Part shown: piece by piece, positions 1 through 28,648 of the stretch
Position numbering within the stretch: position 1 is the first letter of the stretch
How the letters are laid out: the number at the start of each line of letters is the position of its first letter
NCBI RefSeq assembly: GCF_006345805.1
Contig: NW_021832295.1
Coordinates: 1-31,359 of the forward strand
Length of the DNA stretch: 31,359 bases
Direction of reading: 5' to 3'
From: Octopus sinensis
Lineage: Eukaryota
Notes under the pieces: generated by a model
What the model was told of the DNA's origin: nothing
The model's database searches: none
The model's input: the letters and a program-made list of their open reading frames with translations, nothing else
Made by a program: the position numbers and the translations under genes

Positions 1-254
1 TTTTTTAAATGTCTTGCTTTGAAGAACTGCATTAGGTACGATTAGTGAAATTTTGGTAGTAATGACTTATGTCCCTCTTAGTGTGAGGCATTTATGTGTA
101 ATAATGCCCTCTATACAATATAAATTAATATGTTCTAAAGAAAAAAATTATTTTCGAATTTTTCTCTTATGAGGTTTTTCACGCTAACTACATGATAATT
201 TCTTGTTAAGATTCCTTATTAAGAAGTTATCCTTAATTGTTAAATATATATACA

Positions 255-588
255 CGAGCAAAACGCCCCCCCCCGTCCAATGGACGGTGCTGAGTTGTCA
301 AACATTTAAACCAAATTTTCTCAAAGCAACTTGTCCGAGAAACACTGATTTAACCTAAATTTGAGACACCAGCAAAAGAAGAAATAAAGATAGACTTTTT
401 TCTATTCCAAAGAATGCTTTATCGATCGCATTCTCACCTGGAATTGATTTTTGTAATTTTTTCAAGACTTATACACGCCCCGATACCGTCGGTATCTACA
501 TATTAAATTTGAGCGCAATCGGATGGAGGATGCCCGAGATCCTAGAAGACACATACACAGACAGACAGAACGAATTTTATATAATAAA
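255..588 (-). mobile_element. Non-autonomous Helitron-like element, 5' portion (left boundary undetermined)
   Basis: Minus strand begins TTTATTATATAAAATTCGTTCTGTCTGTCTGTG...CCGATTGCGCTCAAATTT. This is the same 5' layout (TATATAAA, CTGT microsatellite, then an AAATTT-like motif) as the Helitron at 16774-17142. The terminal TC is degraded and no CTAG end is seen. Confidence 0.4.
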
Positions 589-3335: not shown

Positions 3336-3969
3336 CTCTTCTATTTTTTAAATTATAATAAATCTTCCACTGAGGAGTTTCCAACAAAGATACAAGGCTC
3401 CATCTTTGGGATGTAGTTAACACAGACAAATTCACATTTGGAACTTGAGAATAGTCTTATATATTTTTACTGTTCCACTCACAGATTGGACTTGAAATGT
3501 ACGAATTAGCCGGTCGATTTCTCTTTCTGAAAATCCCAGTTTATCCAGATTTTCCTTTAAGCATTTATTAACAAAACCTAATGAGTCAATTATTACTGGT
3601 ATGAATATGAATTCATAGTCTGAATATAAAAGCTGGAGGTTTCGAAACAGTTGTCCATAGTTATCCTCTTTCTCTTTGATTCTCAAAGAGGTATATCTAC
3701 AGAGCAGATGACCTCTGTGATGGTAAATACATTTGCCCCTCTGTCCCAAACAACAATATCCGTCTTGTTATGTTTACATTTGACGGACGTTTTGATGGGA
3801 ATATTACTTGAGTTGGTATTTATGAATGTATGCCATAACAGAGGGATTTTCTAAGTTTATTTCAGGACAGTCTTTTTTGCGGATGACATTGTAAATTGTT
3901 TTTGTAACAACATCGTGCCGCATAGGGAAGTAGTACCGCGACGACATTTTAGGACAGCTGCTACTCACA
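3336..3969 (-). mobile_element. R4/Dong-clade non-LTR retrotransposon 3' fragment (zinc-knuckle end, restriction-like endonuclease, 3' UTR), frameshifted
   Basis: Minus-strand translation SSCPKMSSRYYFPMRHDVV (RHD 3912-3920) ... KHNKTDIVVWD...ITEVIC ... KEKEDNY..L...IPVIIDSLG matches the RHN/D, RPDIV, E and KxxxY motifs of RLE LINEs. Stop at 3432-3434, then UTR, then (CATA)n. Confidence 0.8.
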
Positions 3970-4106
3970 TGCCGAACCGCTAATATTTTGCCGAACCGCT
4001 AAAGTTACGGGGACGTAAACACATCAACAATGCTTGTCAAGCGATGCTGGGGTGGACAAACACACACAAACACACAGACATACACACACACACAGACACA
4101 CACACA

Positions 4107-4146
<40 letters not shown>

Positions 4147-4305
4147 GACGGGCTTCTTCCAGTTTCCGTCTACCAAATCCACTCACAAGGCTTTGGTCGG
4201 CCCGAGGCTATAGTAGAAGACACTTGCCCAAGGTGCCATGCAGTGGGACTGAACGCGGGACCATGTGGTTGGTAAGCAAACTACTTACCACACAGTCACT
4301 CCTGC
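3970..4305 (-). mobile_element. tRNA-derived SINE family A (octopus OR/OK-type, CORE-like motif), 3' end missing
   Basis: Minus strand GCAGGAGTGACTGTGTGGTAAG (A-box) ... GTTCAGTCCC (B-box) ... CACCTTGGGCAAGT (CORE-like), with an internal (TG)n. Several other copies in the window. Confidence 0.85.
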
Positions 4306-7975: not shown

Positions 7976-7977
<2 letters not shown>

Positions 7978-8111
7978 CGCAGGAGTGGCTGTGTAGTGAG
8001 TAGCTTGCTTAGTATGGCATATTGGGAACGTGTCTTCTATTATAGTTTAGGGCCAACCAATCTTTGTGAGTGGATTTGGAAGACGGAAACTGAAAGAAGC
8101 CCGTCGTATAT

Positions 8112-8153
<42 letters not shown>

Positions 8154-8296
8154 TATATATATATATATATTATATATATATGTATATGTATATATATATA
8201 TACACATATATATGTGTGTGTGTATGTGTGTGTGTGTGTATTTATATCTATATCTATCTATATATATATACATACACGACGGGCTTCTTTCAGTTT
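7976..8296 (+). mobile_element. SINE family A 5' half (B-box deleted) ending in a fold-back around its internal microsatellite
   Basis: GGCGCAGGAGTGGCTGTGTAG head. 8087-8107 is the exact reverse complement of 8276-8296. Confidence 0.75.
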
Positions 8297-8351
8297 GCCT
8301 TGGTTCGATGGGTTTTAGGCACAATACGTTTCAATATTCTGCGGTCCCTCT

Positions 8352-8960
8352 CGTTAGCACGCCGGGCGAAATGCTTAGCGGTATTTCATCTACAAAAGGC
8401 GGCGAGCTGGTAGAAACGTTAGCACGCCGGGTGAAATTCTTAGCGGTATTTCGTCTGCCGCTACGTTCTGAGTTCAAATTCCGCCGAGGTCGACTTTGCC
8501 TTTCATCCTTTCGGGGTCGATTAAATAAGTACCAGTTACGCACTGGGGTCGATAAAATCGACTTAATCCGTTTGTCTGTCCTTGTTTGTCCTCTCTGTGT
8601 TTAGCCCCTTGTGGGTAGTAAAGAAATAGGTATTTCATCTACATTTTGGGATTCCGCCGAGGTCGACTTTGCCTTTCATCCTTTCGGGGTCGATAAATTA
8701 AGTACCAGTTACGCATTGGGGTCGATGTTATCTGTCTGTCCTTGTCTGTCCCCTCTGTGTTTAGCCCCTTGTGGGTAATAAAGAAATAGAAATAGGTATT
8801 TCATCTACCGTTACGTTCTGAGTTCAAATTCCGCTGTGGTCGACATTACCTTTCATCCTCTCGGGATCGATTACGCGCTGGAGTCGACGTAATCGACTTA
8901 ATCATTTTTATCTGTCCTTGTTTGTCCCCTCTTTGTTTAGCCCCATGTGGGCAATAAATT
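8352..8960 (+). mobile_element. Nested tRNA-derived SINE family B: host copy (8352-8393 plus 8795-8960) containing a full-length copy (8398-8628) and a 5'-truncated copy (~8644-8794)
   Basis: GGCGGCGAGCTGGTAGAAACG head, GAGTTCAAATTCC B-box, AAAGAAATA tails. Identical 14-mer GGTATTTCATCTAC at 8380, 8629 and 8795. Confidence 0.85.
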
Positions 8961-9152
8961 ATTATACCTGCTACAGCTGGGGTGGAAGTCCATCTTATAT
9001 ATATATGTGTATGTGTATGTGCCTTCGTGTTTATGTGTTACTCCTTTTGTTATTGTGGAGTGAATATTTGAAGTGGTAGGACGTATTCGGCATGTTCTTT
9101 CAGCATATTGGCATTAATAGCTTTTGTGCCCTAAAGAATAATATGTATATAT

Positions 9153-10679: not shown

Positions 10680-10733
10680 GCATATATGCTTATATATATG
10701 TATATGCACCACACACACACATGCATATATGGG

Positions 10734-10975
10734 TACAGGACGTCACAAACCGTAAAGAACATGAAATGCGAAAACAAAAGAGTTGAATACATAAACAACG
10801 AGAGAAACAAATGGAAAACAGGACAAATAATGAGGAGTAGATGGACAGCCGACAACTGATGAAGGGTCGTTCTTTATGTTACTTGTCCTGTTTTCCATTT
10901 GTTTCTCTCGTTGTTTATGTATTCAACTCTTTTGTTTTCGCATTTCATGTTGTTTACGGTTTGTGACGTCCTGTA
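10734..10975. repeat. Fold-back element: 93-bp inverted repeats (92/93 identical) with a 56-nt spacer, embedded in (TA)n
   Basis: 10734-10826 versus the reverse complement of 10883-10975. Confidence 0.9.
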
Positions 10976-11109
10976 ATTATATATATATATATATATAAAT
11001 ATTATTTATATTATTATTTGATTGAACGCCACGCATCCATTTCCAAATAATTTTATCTCAGTATATATATATATATATATTATATATATATATTATATAT
11101 ATATATATA

Positions 11110-13151: not shown

Positions 13152-13198
<47 letters not shown>

Positions 13199-13282
13199 GA
13201 CGGGCTTCTTTCAGTTTCTGTCTACCAAATCTACTCACAAGGCTTTGGTCGGTCCGTGGCAATAGTAGAAGATACTTGTCCA
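12950..13282 (-). mobile_element. SINE family A lacking its tRNA head
   Basis: TTTTGCCGAACCGCTAAGTTACGGG, ACGACGGGCTTCTTTCAG and CTCACAAGGCTTTGGTCGG blocks. Confidence 0.85.
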
Positions 13283-13370
13283 ATACACACAGATAGAGAA
13301 ATTAAGGCAAATAGGCACATAGAGCTGCGCTTGGTAGTGCAGTGAAACCACGTGATAAAAAATAAGACTA

Positions 13371-13532: not shown

Positions 13533-14440
13533 AAACCATCCCCATTAGAAGAGGAATATTCCAGGGAGACACACTCTCCACTCCTTTTCTGCTTGGTACT
13601 GACACCTTTATCTGACATGCTAAACAGAAGTAGATGTGGCAAAACAGTCAGCTACGTCTTATATATGGATGATCTAAAACTGTACACTACAAATGATAAA
13701 CAGCTACAAACATTATTACAGACAGTAAATGGATCTACTAAAGAAATAAATATGAAATTTGGCTTAGAAAAATGTGTGAAAGCAACTTTGAAAAGAGGAA
13801 AACTAGTTAAGAGTAGTTACATCACACTAGACAAAGCAAAAGAAAAAAGAGAATTAGACCAAAGCCAGACATACAAATGTTTAGGAATCAATGAACTAGA
13901 TACGATACAACATACACAGATGAAAGAGAAAATATTATAGATGAGTTAGATTAATACCGAAAACAGAGCTCAATGCAAAAAAACAAGATAATAGGTATCG
14001 ACACTCTAGCCGTCCCAGTTATAAGTTAGAGCTACAATATTCTTAACTGGACTCTAAATGAACTAATCAAAAATAGACAGGAAAACAAGAAAGATAATGA
14101 CAGGATTTAGGATGCACCACCCAAAATCTGACATAGAAAGGTTATATATACAACATATGGGAGGTGGTAGAGGCCTTATACAGCTAGAAAACTATTACAA
14201 AATAACCACCATAGGACTACAAAGATATCTACTTCAAAAGCAAGGAAAACTAATACAAATAGCCACAAAACACGAACAAAACAAAAAACAGTTGTCAGTC
14301 TTTAAGGAAGCTGACAAATACAAAAAAGAAGTCATAGTACCTAACAACTATGAAGGAAAATAAGAAACAACAAAAGCTGTACAACAACTGAAATCCAAAC
14401 TAAAACTGGAACAGCAGCAGATCATGATAAAATGATGGCA
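13533..14440 (+). mobile_element. R4/Dong LINE reverse-transcriptase fragment (pseudogenised)
   Basis: IRRGIFQGDTLS (QGD 13562-13570), YMDDLKLY (YMDD 13662-13673), FGLEKC, YKCLG, ELNAK, HPKSDIERLY..GGRGL, with frameshifts and stops. Confidence 0.9.
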
Positions 14441-14788
14441 GCACAGATTAGAGCCTCCGTTTCCGGTTTTAGTCACTCATAGCCATCTTTTTTCTCTGTT
14501 TTACTTTCAACATCCTTATCGAATCGTCCATGCATTCTTTTCTTTCTCCACCTATTTTCAGTTTTATTCATTCTCAAGTGCTCGTACAATGCTTTATCTT
14601 TGCAATATTCCATCCTACACATGCATGAGCTTCTTACTTTCAATAATAGTGGTTCTGCAGCATTTTTTACATACCATGTTATGTTGTTTTTTTTCTGCTC
14701 TAATGCTGTGTTCGCATCCAAACAGTCCTTTTCACCTCTTTTTCTTGGTACATACAGTCTGTCTGTGTCACGTTTTTGGTGGAGTGTC
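14437..14788 (-). mobile_element. Second, divergent R4/Dong LINE fragment (post-RT region)
   Basis: LHQKRDTDRLYVPRKRG ... WRKKRMHGRF ... LKPETEALICA on the minus strand. Confidence 0.85.
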
Positions 14789-14827
14789 ATTATTATTATT
14801 ATTATTACTATTATTATTATATTATTA

Positions 14828-14870
<43 letters not shown>
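14789..14870. repeat. (TTA)n array
   Basis: Direct reading. It is (TAA)n on the sense strand of the adjacent LINE. Confidence 0.95.
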
Positions 14871-15064
14871 TCTAATTTGGGTACAAGGCTAGCAATTTTA
14901 ATGGGCAGGGGTTACCCAATAGCATCGACTCCCGAAAAGTTGAAATGCGAACTTGACCTTTCGGCCTTCAATCAGCTGAGCAGTGGAATCAGTGGAACGT
15001 GGATTTTAGAGAAGACGTAACAGTTAGAATATTCAGCGAGCCGACCAGGACACACACACACACA

Positions 15065-18160: not shown

Positions 18161-18302
18161 AATTTTCAGCTCGATCCTAGCACGTCTAGTGCCATTGAAT
18201 CCTTACCAAAGCCAAAGTGTGCAAGTTTTTTCCTCTTTTATATAGGTAGATTTTTTTCCTCTTTTATATAGGTAGATTTTTTTCCTCTTTTATATAGGTA
18301 GA
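18161..18302 (-). mobile_element. Duplicate ~90-bp Helitron 5' end with its terminal 26-mer present three times in tandem
   Basis: 18161-18250 is near-identical to 17572-17662. T(6-7)CCTCTTTTATATAGGTAGA occurs at 18226, 18251 and 18277. Confidence 0.75.
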
Positions 18303-18344: not shown

Positions 18345-18664
18345 TTATTCTTTTATTTATTTCAGTCATTTGACTGTGGCCATGCTGGAGCACTGCCTTA
18401 AGTCGAGCAAATCGACCCCAGGACTTTTTCTTTGTAAGCCTAGTACTTATTCTATCGGTCGCTTTTGCCGAACCGATTGGTTACGGGGTCGTAAACATAC
18501 CAGCATCGGTTGTCAAGCGATGTTGGGGAGGACACACACACACGATGGCCTTCTTTCAGTTTCTTCCAACCAAATCCACTCACAAGGCTTTGGTCGTACC
18601 AAGGCTATAGAAGAAGACACTTGACCAAGACACCACGCAGTGGGACTGAACCCGGGACTCCTGC
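18345..18664 (-). mobile_element. SINE family A, near-full (A-box region deleted)
   Basis: Tail TTTCAGTCATTTGACTGTGGCCATGCTGGAGCAC through GTGGGACTGAACCCGGGAC. Confidence 0.85.
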
Positions 18665-24299: not shown

Positions 24300-25370
24300 C
24301 TACTATAAATAGTGTTACTAGACAAGGTAAGGGAGTCAGTGTTAGAATACAAGATAAAGAGTTTTGTTAGAAAAGATAGAAAAATGGTTTTATTTGGCAG
24401 GTTAGAAACGTTAGTATAGAAGACAAAGAGGTGTTACTATCAACGACAAATAATTATTTCAGATTTTTGCCACAAGGGCAGCTTGAAGTATTGTCGATTA
24501 CATCAACCTCACTGTTCAACCAGTACTCATTTTATCAACTCCGAAAGGATGAATGGCAAAGTTGACCTCGGTGGAATTTGAACACAGAACGTAGCGACGG
24601 GCGAAATATCGCTAAGCATTTCATCCAGCGTGCTAACGATTCTGCCAGCTTGGCGCCTTATGAATGATAAATAATGATAAAATGTTTTTAGACGAAATAA
24701 AAGCGTGTTGTTAAGCAATTTGTAGTGTTTCTGGACAAGATAAACAGAAACTTATGAAATAAGAGAGTGCTGCCATACAAGATAAACAGAAGCGCTAATA
24801 GACAAGGTAGAAAAAAAGTGTTATTATATAAAGTGTTATATATAAAGAAATGTTACTAGATAAATAAAGAAACAATCCAGGATAAATAGTATGTGATAGA
24901 GGAGTGTTATTAGGCGAGATGAAAAAGTGTTTCTGGACAAGATAAACAGAGGAGTTATTGTACGAGATAAAGTTCTCTAACAAGACAGAAATATTATTAG
25001 AGAAAGCAAAGAGTTGTTATTAGATCAAATAAGATACTATACAAGATAAATAGTGAACTATACGTGATAACGTATGTTATTAGACAAGATAAAAGAGTGT
25101 TATGAAGTAGATATAAAATTATTTCTGGACAAGATAAACAAACGTGTTAATTGTCTCAATAAAGGAGTGTTACAAAACAAAACAGAGAAGAGGTATTAGA
25201 AAAAAATTAGATAAATACTATGAGATAAACTAAGCATACTATAGAGGCTACTATACAAAATAGTGATGCCGTACGTAATAAAGAGTGTTATTAGACAAGA
25301 TAAAATAGTGATATTTATGGAAGATAAAGAAGTGTAGAGAATTGTCATTAAAGAAGAAATGTTACACAAG
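24300..25370. repeat. Degenerate minisatellite, ~22-24-bp unit AGTGTTATTAGACAAGATAAA, with ~200-bp higher-order period
   Basis: TTTCTGGACAAGATAAACA is exact at 24728, 24930 and 25122, with many variant units. Interrupted by SINE B. Confidence 0.7.
24455..24657 (-). mobile_element. SINE family B
   Basis: Minus strand GGCGCCAAGCTGGCAGAATCGTTAGCACGC...GTTCAAATTCCACCGAGGTCAAC. Confidence 0.85.
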
Positions 25371-26575
25371 ATTATGTAGTGAAAGTAGACAATTTAAAGA
25401 CGCACTTCTATGAGTATTACAAAAGATGGATTAAAATACTTGGAAAGTAAATCTAAAATGAATCGCAAGTAGTGTTCCAGGTTGGACACAGTCCAATGGA
25501 TGAAGCCAGTGAAGGAATAAAGAAGAAGACTTAATGAATTCTTTCACTAATAATGTAGCCGTTAAGTAATGTTAACATCATAAACCATTGCAGTCATAGA
25601 CTGACAGATGATGCTTTTGGTAAACAGTCACACGCACATACAAGAACATATGCATAAAATATGGAACGCTTTACAAATTTGTGTTATCCGTTCGCATACA
25701 CACACACACACACACACACTGACACACACAGACACACACACAAACTCATACACACAAATACACACATATATATGTATACATTTATAATATATATATATAT
25801 ATATATATACGTGTGTGTGTGTGTGTGTGTGTGTATATTGTATATATATATATATATATTATTATTTATAAATCATATGAGAGCAAAAGAATGAATGAGA
25901 CCTCGATATTATGTAAAATAGAGGAATTTTTCTATAACCTAATTGACACATATTATATTTATATATATATACATATATATACATACATACATATATATAT
26001 ACACACACACACACGCACACACATATATATATATATGAATATATATATATATATACATATATATAAGTGTGTGTTTATTTATTTATGTGTACAGACACAG
26101 ACACAGACACACACACACATATGTACATATATGTGTAAGTATGAGGAGTAACAAAAAGTAAAGCTCTGTCCAACGTGAGCCTCCTTCGGTTCTTTCTGTT
26201 ACGTTACCGGAAAAATTGTTTCAACAAATATTTACCAAGAAGTTACAATAGGAAAGCATAAGGTATCATTTCATTGCAGGCTTCAATGATTAGGTATTGT
26301 GAATGTATTTTGTATCAACTATCATATTTATATACCTAATCGGAATTTTAATGTTTTGTACCATTAACAATAACAGCCACCGATATCGGAGAGAAATCAA
26401 TATTGTATTCTTATGTTCCTTTGGGCATAAGGAAGAATTTCTCAACATACGTGGTTAATATTTCAATGTATTATGTTCCATCGGCTACTAAAACCACAAA
26501 TATTTGAAAGCTATTATGTTCAGACAAATTCACACGCACACACTCACACACACACACATATATATGTAATATAAA

Positions 26576-26725
26576 GACGGCGAGCTGGTGGAATTGTTAG
26601 CACGCAGGACGAAATGCATAGCGGCATTTCGCCCGTCGCTACTTCTTGAGTTCAAATTCCTCCGAGGTCGATATAATCCGCCTTTCCCCCAAATTTTCAG
26701 GACCTTGTGCTCAGAGTAGAAATAA
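26576..26725 (+). mobile_element. SINE family B with internal deletion
   Basis: GACGGCGAGCTGG head, GAGTTCAAATTCC B-box, joined at GGTCGA to the tail. Confidence 0.8.
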
Positions 26726-28391: not shown

Positions 28392-28648
28392 AGGGGACAA
28401 CAAAACATCCAGATATACGATACAAAAAAAACACGAAGGGGTCATTCGAAGCCCCCCACCCTCAGTCAAGAACCGGATCATCCTCGCAATTTCGGCTGAT
28501 TAATCTTGCGAGGATGATCGGTTCTTGACTGAGGGTGAAGGGCTTCGAATGACCTGTCCGTGTTTTGCTTTGTATCGTCTGTCTGGATGTTTTGTTATCC
28601 CCTTTTGTGTCACCTGGTTGTCCGGATGTTTTGCGTTCTTGTCCCATT
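28392..28648. repeat. Fold-back element: ~98-bp imperfect inverted arms, 16-nt loop, right arm extended by 45 nt
   Basis: 28392-28489 versus the reverse complement of 28506-28603. Embedded in (TA)n. Confidence 0.85.

Follow-up and report, generated by a model that had tools for sequence, protein, structure and literature searches.

Zepp of Chlorella is a retroelement that nests within its own copies, and in tandem Alu insertions the second element lands in the duplication made by the first; Zepp, however, is an autonomous LINE, and Alu re-insertion occurs at a loose A-rich site, not at an internal promoter site. Target-specific retroelements are reported in rDNA, in snRNA and tRNA genes, in microsatellites and in other transposons (PMC5035012, available text). 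The R1 arrays of Drosophila 28S rDNA are described as having a 14-bp duplication between units, untemplated bases at 5′ ends and a mixture of full-length and truncated units (Stage and Eickbush 2009, PMC2718515), as at the locus presented here, and they are reported to grow by insertion into the 5′ duplication. SINEU-3 of crocodilians, which is mobilised by Tx1-Mar, likewise resembles our case; this SINE has a fixed target that lies within another repeat and makes a 16-nt duplication, and its tandem copies sandwich that duplication, which was read as sequential insertion (Kojima 2015, PMC4494074). We analysed a window of 31,359 nucleotides of Octopus sinensis DNA, AT-rich and dense in microsatellites, in which two SINE copies lie at one position within a third member of their own family.

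Architecture of the nested locus

A sequence-only reading of this DNA had reported a 14-mer at 8380, 8629 and 8795 bracketing a full-length and a truncated SINE, and exact matches of GGTATTTCATCTAC were indeed found at 8380-8393, 8629-8642 and 8795-8808. All parts of the structure are on the forward strand. The host SINE begins with a truncated 5′ piece at 8351-8379 (start at 8351-8352, downstream of the A box), which aligns with 8417-8444 of the first insert and with the copy at 24639, and the first 14-mer follows in the host's own upstream context. Insert 1 (8394-8628), a full-length SINE of 235 nt with a long tail, starts with AAAA, has its head from 8398 and its tail at about 8565-8628, and carries an A-box-like motif at 8408 and a B-box-like motif at 8470. 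Between these motifs, at 8445-8458, is an unoccupied site with GGTATTTCGTCTGC, a form of the 14-mer with 2 mismatches; the equivalent internal position had been placed there by the earlier reading, correctly. The second 14-mer separates the two inserts. The 5′-truncated SINE that follows (8643-8794) opens with 8 untemplated, non-SINE bases at its 5′ junction (8643-8650), which contain a T4 run at 8644-8647, and continues as the long-tailed insert 2 (8651-8794), which lacks A and B boxes and hence a promoter, has a 13-nt internal deletion and ends in a doubled GAAATA (8789-8794). The third 14-mer has the host's downstream context. The host is back in register at 8809, and its 3′ piece (8809-8958) includes a B-box-like motif at 8820, a 15-nt deletion and a long tail before an AT-rich flank.

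Removal of both inserts and two of the 14-mers left a host copy colinear with insert 1 from head to tail. The earlier claim that excision restores a contiguous host thus stood, but not the description of that host as full-length, because it starts after the position of the A box (8408 in insert 1) and lacks this motif. No clear target-site duplication of the host itself was seen at its flanks. Directly upstream of the host, fragments of another SINE family at 7976-8106 (+) and 8272-8296 (-) face each other across a TA array; further copies of that family are found at 4140-4292, 13192-13285 and 18543-18658.

We compared the repeated 14-mer with chance expectation. A complex 14-mer occurring three times was found in 0 of 500 dinucleotide shuffles of 8280-9000, and elsewhere in the window complex 14-mers recur three times within 500 nt only as part of two tandem repeats, near 18229-18293 and 24728-25127. 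A looser shuffle control that allowed 3 mismatches was uninformative (4 matches observed, mean of 5.18 expected). The ends of the 14-mer are sharp, with zero extension to the left between copy 1 and copies 2 and 3 and a right extent of 14 nt (15 nt for copies 1 and 2), and the left and right boundaries are identical for both insertions. At the two diagnostic bases, the host's 14-mer is unlike each of the three other heads in the window; these bases may be private to the host or may mark a subfamily.

Ages were compared by counting private changes against the column majority, which gave 7 in 194 columns for insert 1 (3.6%), 4 in 133 for insert 2 (3.0%) and 19 in 179 for the whole host (10.6%). 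Pairwise, the inserts differ at 9 of 138 positions (6.5%), and insert 1 and the host at 19 of 130 (14.6%). The 15-nt deletion and many substitutions of the host are absent from both inserts, and the 13-nt deletion is private to insert 2. At the divergence of the inserts, finding 0 differences among the three 14-mers has a P of 0.21 to 0.28, and at that of the host a P of 0.009; the identity of the 14-mers therefore suits the age of the inserts and not that of the host. Judged from their sequence, the 14-mers are target-site duplications in an older host and did not arise by tandem duplication of that host, because the host is about three times more diverged and has no indel in common with the inserts. 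The earlier reading had made the same distinction, which the sharp ends, the older host and the lack of shared indels bear out. A tandem duplication of the host was also rejected for want of shared substitutions, and because insert 1 has a 5′ end missing from the host. The two inserts were sisters with 65% bootstrap, and a tree is uninformative as a test of tandem duplication here since the only outgroups in the window carry a different tail. The order of the two insertions cannot be set from the divergences. Insert 2 is cut short exactly at the duplication, carries untemplated bases and repeats its tail end, all of which are common after target-primed reverse transcription. Junctions similar to that of insert 2 are reported for R1 (PMC2718515).

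The window contains six copies of the family. The two inserts and the host have a long tail, and the remaining three copies have a short one. The short-tail copies comprise an older copy at 24455-24659 (-), with the same head and core and a different tail, a copy at 26573-26725 (+) with the same head, both with the internal site unoccupied, and a degenerate copy at 14870-14975 (-) whose tail runs into a TAA array. These three copies combine the head and core of the nested SINE with another, shorter tail, amounting to tail exchange within the family. A- and B-box patterns, which we built from the consensus, matched at 8408/8470, 26586/26648 and 24647/24585. The head forms a long hairpin, and among 3 copies 0 of its 32 pairs are compensated. 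ARAGORN returned 0 tRNA genes, and Rfam gave no tRNA match at E≤5. The element is short, dispersed and non-coding, with marks of retrotransposition in its 14-nt duplications and its 5′-truncated copy. Its translations match spurious Octopus bimaculoides proteins at 85-86% identity, and therefore the family is an octopus repeat; its features suggest that it is likely a tRNA-type SINE. The core presumably resembles that of MetaSINEs. A search for the 66-bp Meta domain, which in MetaSINEs directly follows the tRNA head, yielded no match in the supplement files searched, the published consensus being given as a figure. Octopus tRNA-CORE SINE families OK, OR1 and OR2 are listed by name in a RepeatMasker table.

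Other repeats occur elsewhere in the window. Near-perfect, MITE-like inverted repeats with TA-rich flanks are found at 10725-10984 (95% over 106 nt) and 28392-28603 (85%, about 100 nt per arm), and young direct duplications at 17572-17663/18161-18251 (97.8%), adjoining a 26-nt tandem array, and at 30558-30672/30915-31029 (98.3%). A unit of ~200 nt is present three times at 24682-25140, adjoining the SINE copy at 24.6 kb.

Possible origins of two SINE copies at one position

Without the inserts, the family covers 2.1% of the window, and a first insertion into a family member is therefore not remarkable. In contrast, for a second insertion to strike the same base and strand at random, the probability is 2e-5 to 2e-4 for 1e5 to 1e6 copies, assuming a 2.7-Gb genome. 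Two unlinked random insertions were rejected on that estimate, and the events were therefore either site-directed or coupled. The reading that we favor, with a slight lean in its direction, is that two young SINE copies inserted sequentially and in a site-directed manner, with a fixed 14-nt stagger, into an older, truncated member of the family. Target-primed reverse transcription would have put both copies at one position between the promoter boxes, and the endonuclease of a partner LINE would likely recognise the site and cut it with a fixed 14-base stagger. Each insertion would represent a separate cleavage, with the second directed at the duplication that the first left behind, in the way described for R1 arrays; as those arrays grow into the 5′ duplication, insert 2 would have come first and insert 1 second. 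A Dong-R4 or Tx1-type LINE may have supplied the enzyme. The Pol III transcript of a nested copy, reading through the tail into the 14-mer, might help by pairing with a nicked target in further copies. With 0 nt of microhomology between the tail end and the upstream host, annealing of the tail did not select the site. Priming by tail microhomology was rejected on this basis; moreover, the 14-mer starts with the reverse complement of the tail end, an arrangement that would prime in the opposite orientation.

Identical boundaries would also result from a single cut. A weakly specific enzyme could have nicked the host once by chance, with no need for a family-wide target. The reverse transcriptase would then have copied a truncated RNA, added 8 bases, switched to the upstream overhang of 14 nt and primed again on another RNA; in a variant of this scheme the fresh duplication was re-cut at once. 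The similar ages of the inserts and their sister relationship fit this scheme, as does the fact that first hits within the family are not rare, and a model of 5′ junction formation in which the template jump goes onto target DNA has been published (PMC2912911). Re-priming on a second RNA after the overhang has been copied is, however, a step that we infer and that was not found in the literature consulted, in the parts available. Annealing is reported to be preferred to jumping for the 5′ ends of R2, R1 arrays have been read as sequential insertion (PMC2718515), and the tail has no microhomology with the first site. A single cleavage with two templates is unlikely in our judgment, though it deserves more weight than the two schemes that follow.

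The tandem pair might instead have come from one insertion, by unequal crossover between its two duplications, the second copy then losing its 5′ end through a deletion with filler. The inserts are indeed closer to each other than insert 1 is to the host, and arrays of the form duplication-(SINE-duplication)n in a bivalve have been ascribed to this route (PMC11481361, available text). The deletion would nevertheless have had to stop no more than 1 nt from the edge of the duplication; a truncated reverse transcript does so automatically, whereas for a deletion we estimate a coincidence of about 1% (2/235). Untemplated bases and a repeated tail end typically indicate a separate insertion, and we regard crossover as highly improbable. 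RNA could also have guided the insertions, if transcripts of nested donors carry head sequence from downstream and anneal to nicks in the same region of other copies. The first T4 run after the head of insert 1 is at 8644, and the run at 8644-8647 is likely, from its sequence, to act as a Pol III stop; the transcript of insert 1 would accordingly include the 14-mer because no such run precedes it. Site-specific integration is reported to be stronger when target sequence is transcribed along with the element (PMC4494074, PMC5035012), but guidance alone leaves the identical second-strand cut base of both insertions unexplained, making it an improbable account by itself.

Occupancy of the site across the family

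We examined whether sequential, site-directed insertion could reflect a family-wide preference. Family 3′ ends are at the site in 2 of 6 cases in the window (2 of the 3 long-tail copies), and since both are at one locus and may be coupled they are not independent evidence; as a family-wide property, the sequence-specific target proposed in the earlier reading is accordingly tentative. The other four 3′ ends, those of the host tail and the three short-tail copies, are in other flanks, two of which are almost pure A and T. Three further intact sites exist in the window, one at 8445 and one each in the 24.6-kb and 26.6-kb copies; all 3 are empty.

Spurious proteins translated from the SINE were used as a proxy survey. 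Nineteen were returned, 4 of which were dropped as chance matches (P0010, P0015, P0016 and P0018). The site was uninterrupted in 6/6 proteins that span it. At the 9 tail ends with a readable flank, in 8 proteins, the junction peptide was clear in none; P0001 matches 4 of its 6 flanking residues. A second family copy was beside the tail at 4 of these 9 ends, joined at head position about 12, 18, 42 or unresolved, compared with 52 at the nested site. Proteins P0009, P0011, P0014 and P0008 thus suggest tails joined to other family heads at about 12, 18 and 42, which are possible further nesting sites; one of these has microhomology, the tail end agreeing with head position 40-44 over 5 nt. As evidence the proxy proteins are weak, being old, mostly unnamed and preferentially returned by a search in which double hits score. 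They speak against a saturated site and suggest that nesting in the head may be broader.

No more DNA copies of the SINE were found in the plasmids, phages and bacterial genomes searched. No motif match occurred in the searched supplements of a paper that provides an O. vulgaris transcriptome or of a second paper, the main text of papers gave 0 hits for the junction motifs, and the junction reading frame had no usable Atlas match. The junction of tail to internal site may recur in public Octopus sequence, and this presumed recurrence raised our odds for the site-directed reading.

Partner LINEs were considered next to this survey. The recently active families of O. vulgaris are reported to include Dong-R4, with 1129 insertions, and L1-Tx1, with 421 (PMC13282606, available text). 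In the window, a frameshifted LINE 3′ end at about 3340-3960 (-) abuts an ACAT microsatellite. Its frames contain a motif that we assume to be a restriction-like endonuclease; Pfam and PDB left the endonuclease fragment unclassified, and its Atlas matches are unnamed eukaryote clusters. The long tails of the SINE showed no significant similarity to the 3′ UTR of this LINE, the one compared in the window (166-506 of 1000 shuffles scored as high), and no partner LINE was found by this comparison. The best match to this UTR was the tail of the 14.9-kb copy, equalled in 40 of 1000 shuffles, which is not significant given six tests. Decayed LINE fragments at 13533-14440 (+) and 14473-14829 (-) face each other, each starting beside a TAA array, and the reverse-transcriptase fragment at 13533-13937 matches Pfam RVT_1 with an E of 1.7e-11. 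Where a truncated LINE fragment starts, a copy of a different SINE family has a 14-nt word repeated with 5 bases between (3960-4001, -). This repeat has TTAGCGGT in common with the sequence around the nested site; it may have arisen as a duplication at the 5′ junction of the LINE or merely by chance.

A broader hypothesis, to which we give somewhat less than even chances, is that the long-tail subfamily and its partner LINE have adopted the promoter region of their own family as a genome-wide, sequence-specific landing pad. Full-length insertions would then add targets, read-through RNA would favor the same site, and the outcome would be a safe harbour and self-nested arrays. The proposal that each insertion inactivates a sibling promoter and so acts as a brake on copy number failed at this locus: the host is without an A box, and the full-length insert brings an intact pair of A and B boxes together with a fresh internal site. 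A safe harbour may result, though as a by-product unless the preference proves genome-wide. If the hypothesis is true, this SINE would be a target-specific element whose fixed site lies in its own head, a self-referential case in which the target pool expands, and the finding would point to a new site-specific endonuclease. Nesting would also distort the building of repeat consensus sequences and age estimates, because 11.6% of the O. vulgaris genome consists of SINEs (PMC13282606). If the genome-wide preference fails, the locus is a neat case of two nested insertions with little interest beyond itself.

Relation to described systems

No report of a self-targeting octopus SINE was found in the literature; Repbase, Dfam, Ohshima and Okada 1994, subscription papers and some supplements could hold one. 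The MetaSINE superfamily, including SepiaSINE2 of cuttlefish, is described as having a tRNA-type head, a conserved core and exchangeable tails (PMC4824008), in line with the family described here, and the available material on it does not mention a target preference. Among molluscs, the tandem SINEs of Scapharca broughtonii also form duplication-(SINE-duplication)n arrays. Their units, however, are reported as highly similar and equally truncated, are ascribed to recombination and are not nested in a family head (PMC11481361). Dada DNA transposons are comparable in having fixed sites in Pol III genes, including the A box, and a duplication that separates tandem insertions (Kojima and Jurka 2013, PMC3706591); in contrast to the octopus SINE, they are DNA transposons with a duplication of 6-7 bp, and their targets are real tRNA and snRNA genes.

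The two target-specific systems reported to share this geometry differ from this locus in the nature of the element or of its target. R1 is an autonomous LINE, and its target is rDNA (PMC2718515). For SINEU-3 the target is the unrelated Mariner-N4, a Mariner reported to flank 313 of 347 near-full copies (PMC4494074), whereas here it is the head of the element's own family, at one locus. The nested structure is thus real and well explained, and tandem insertion at a regenerated duplication is already known from such systems; a target inside the head of the element's own family would be the new part.
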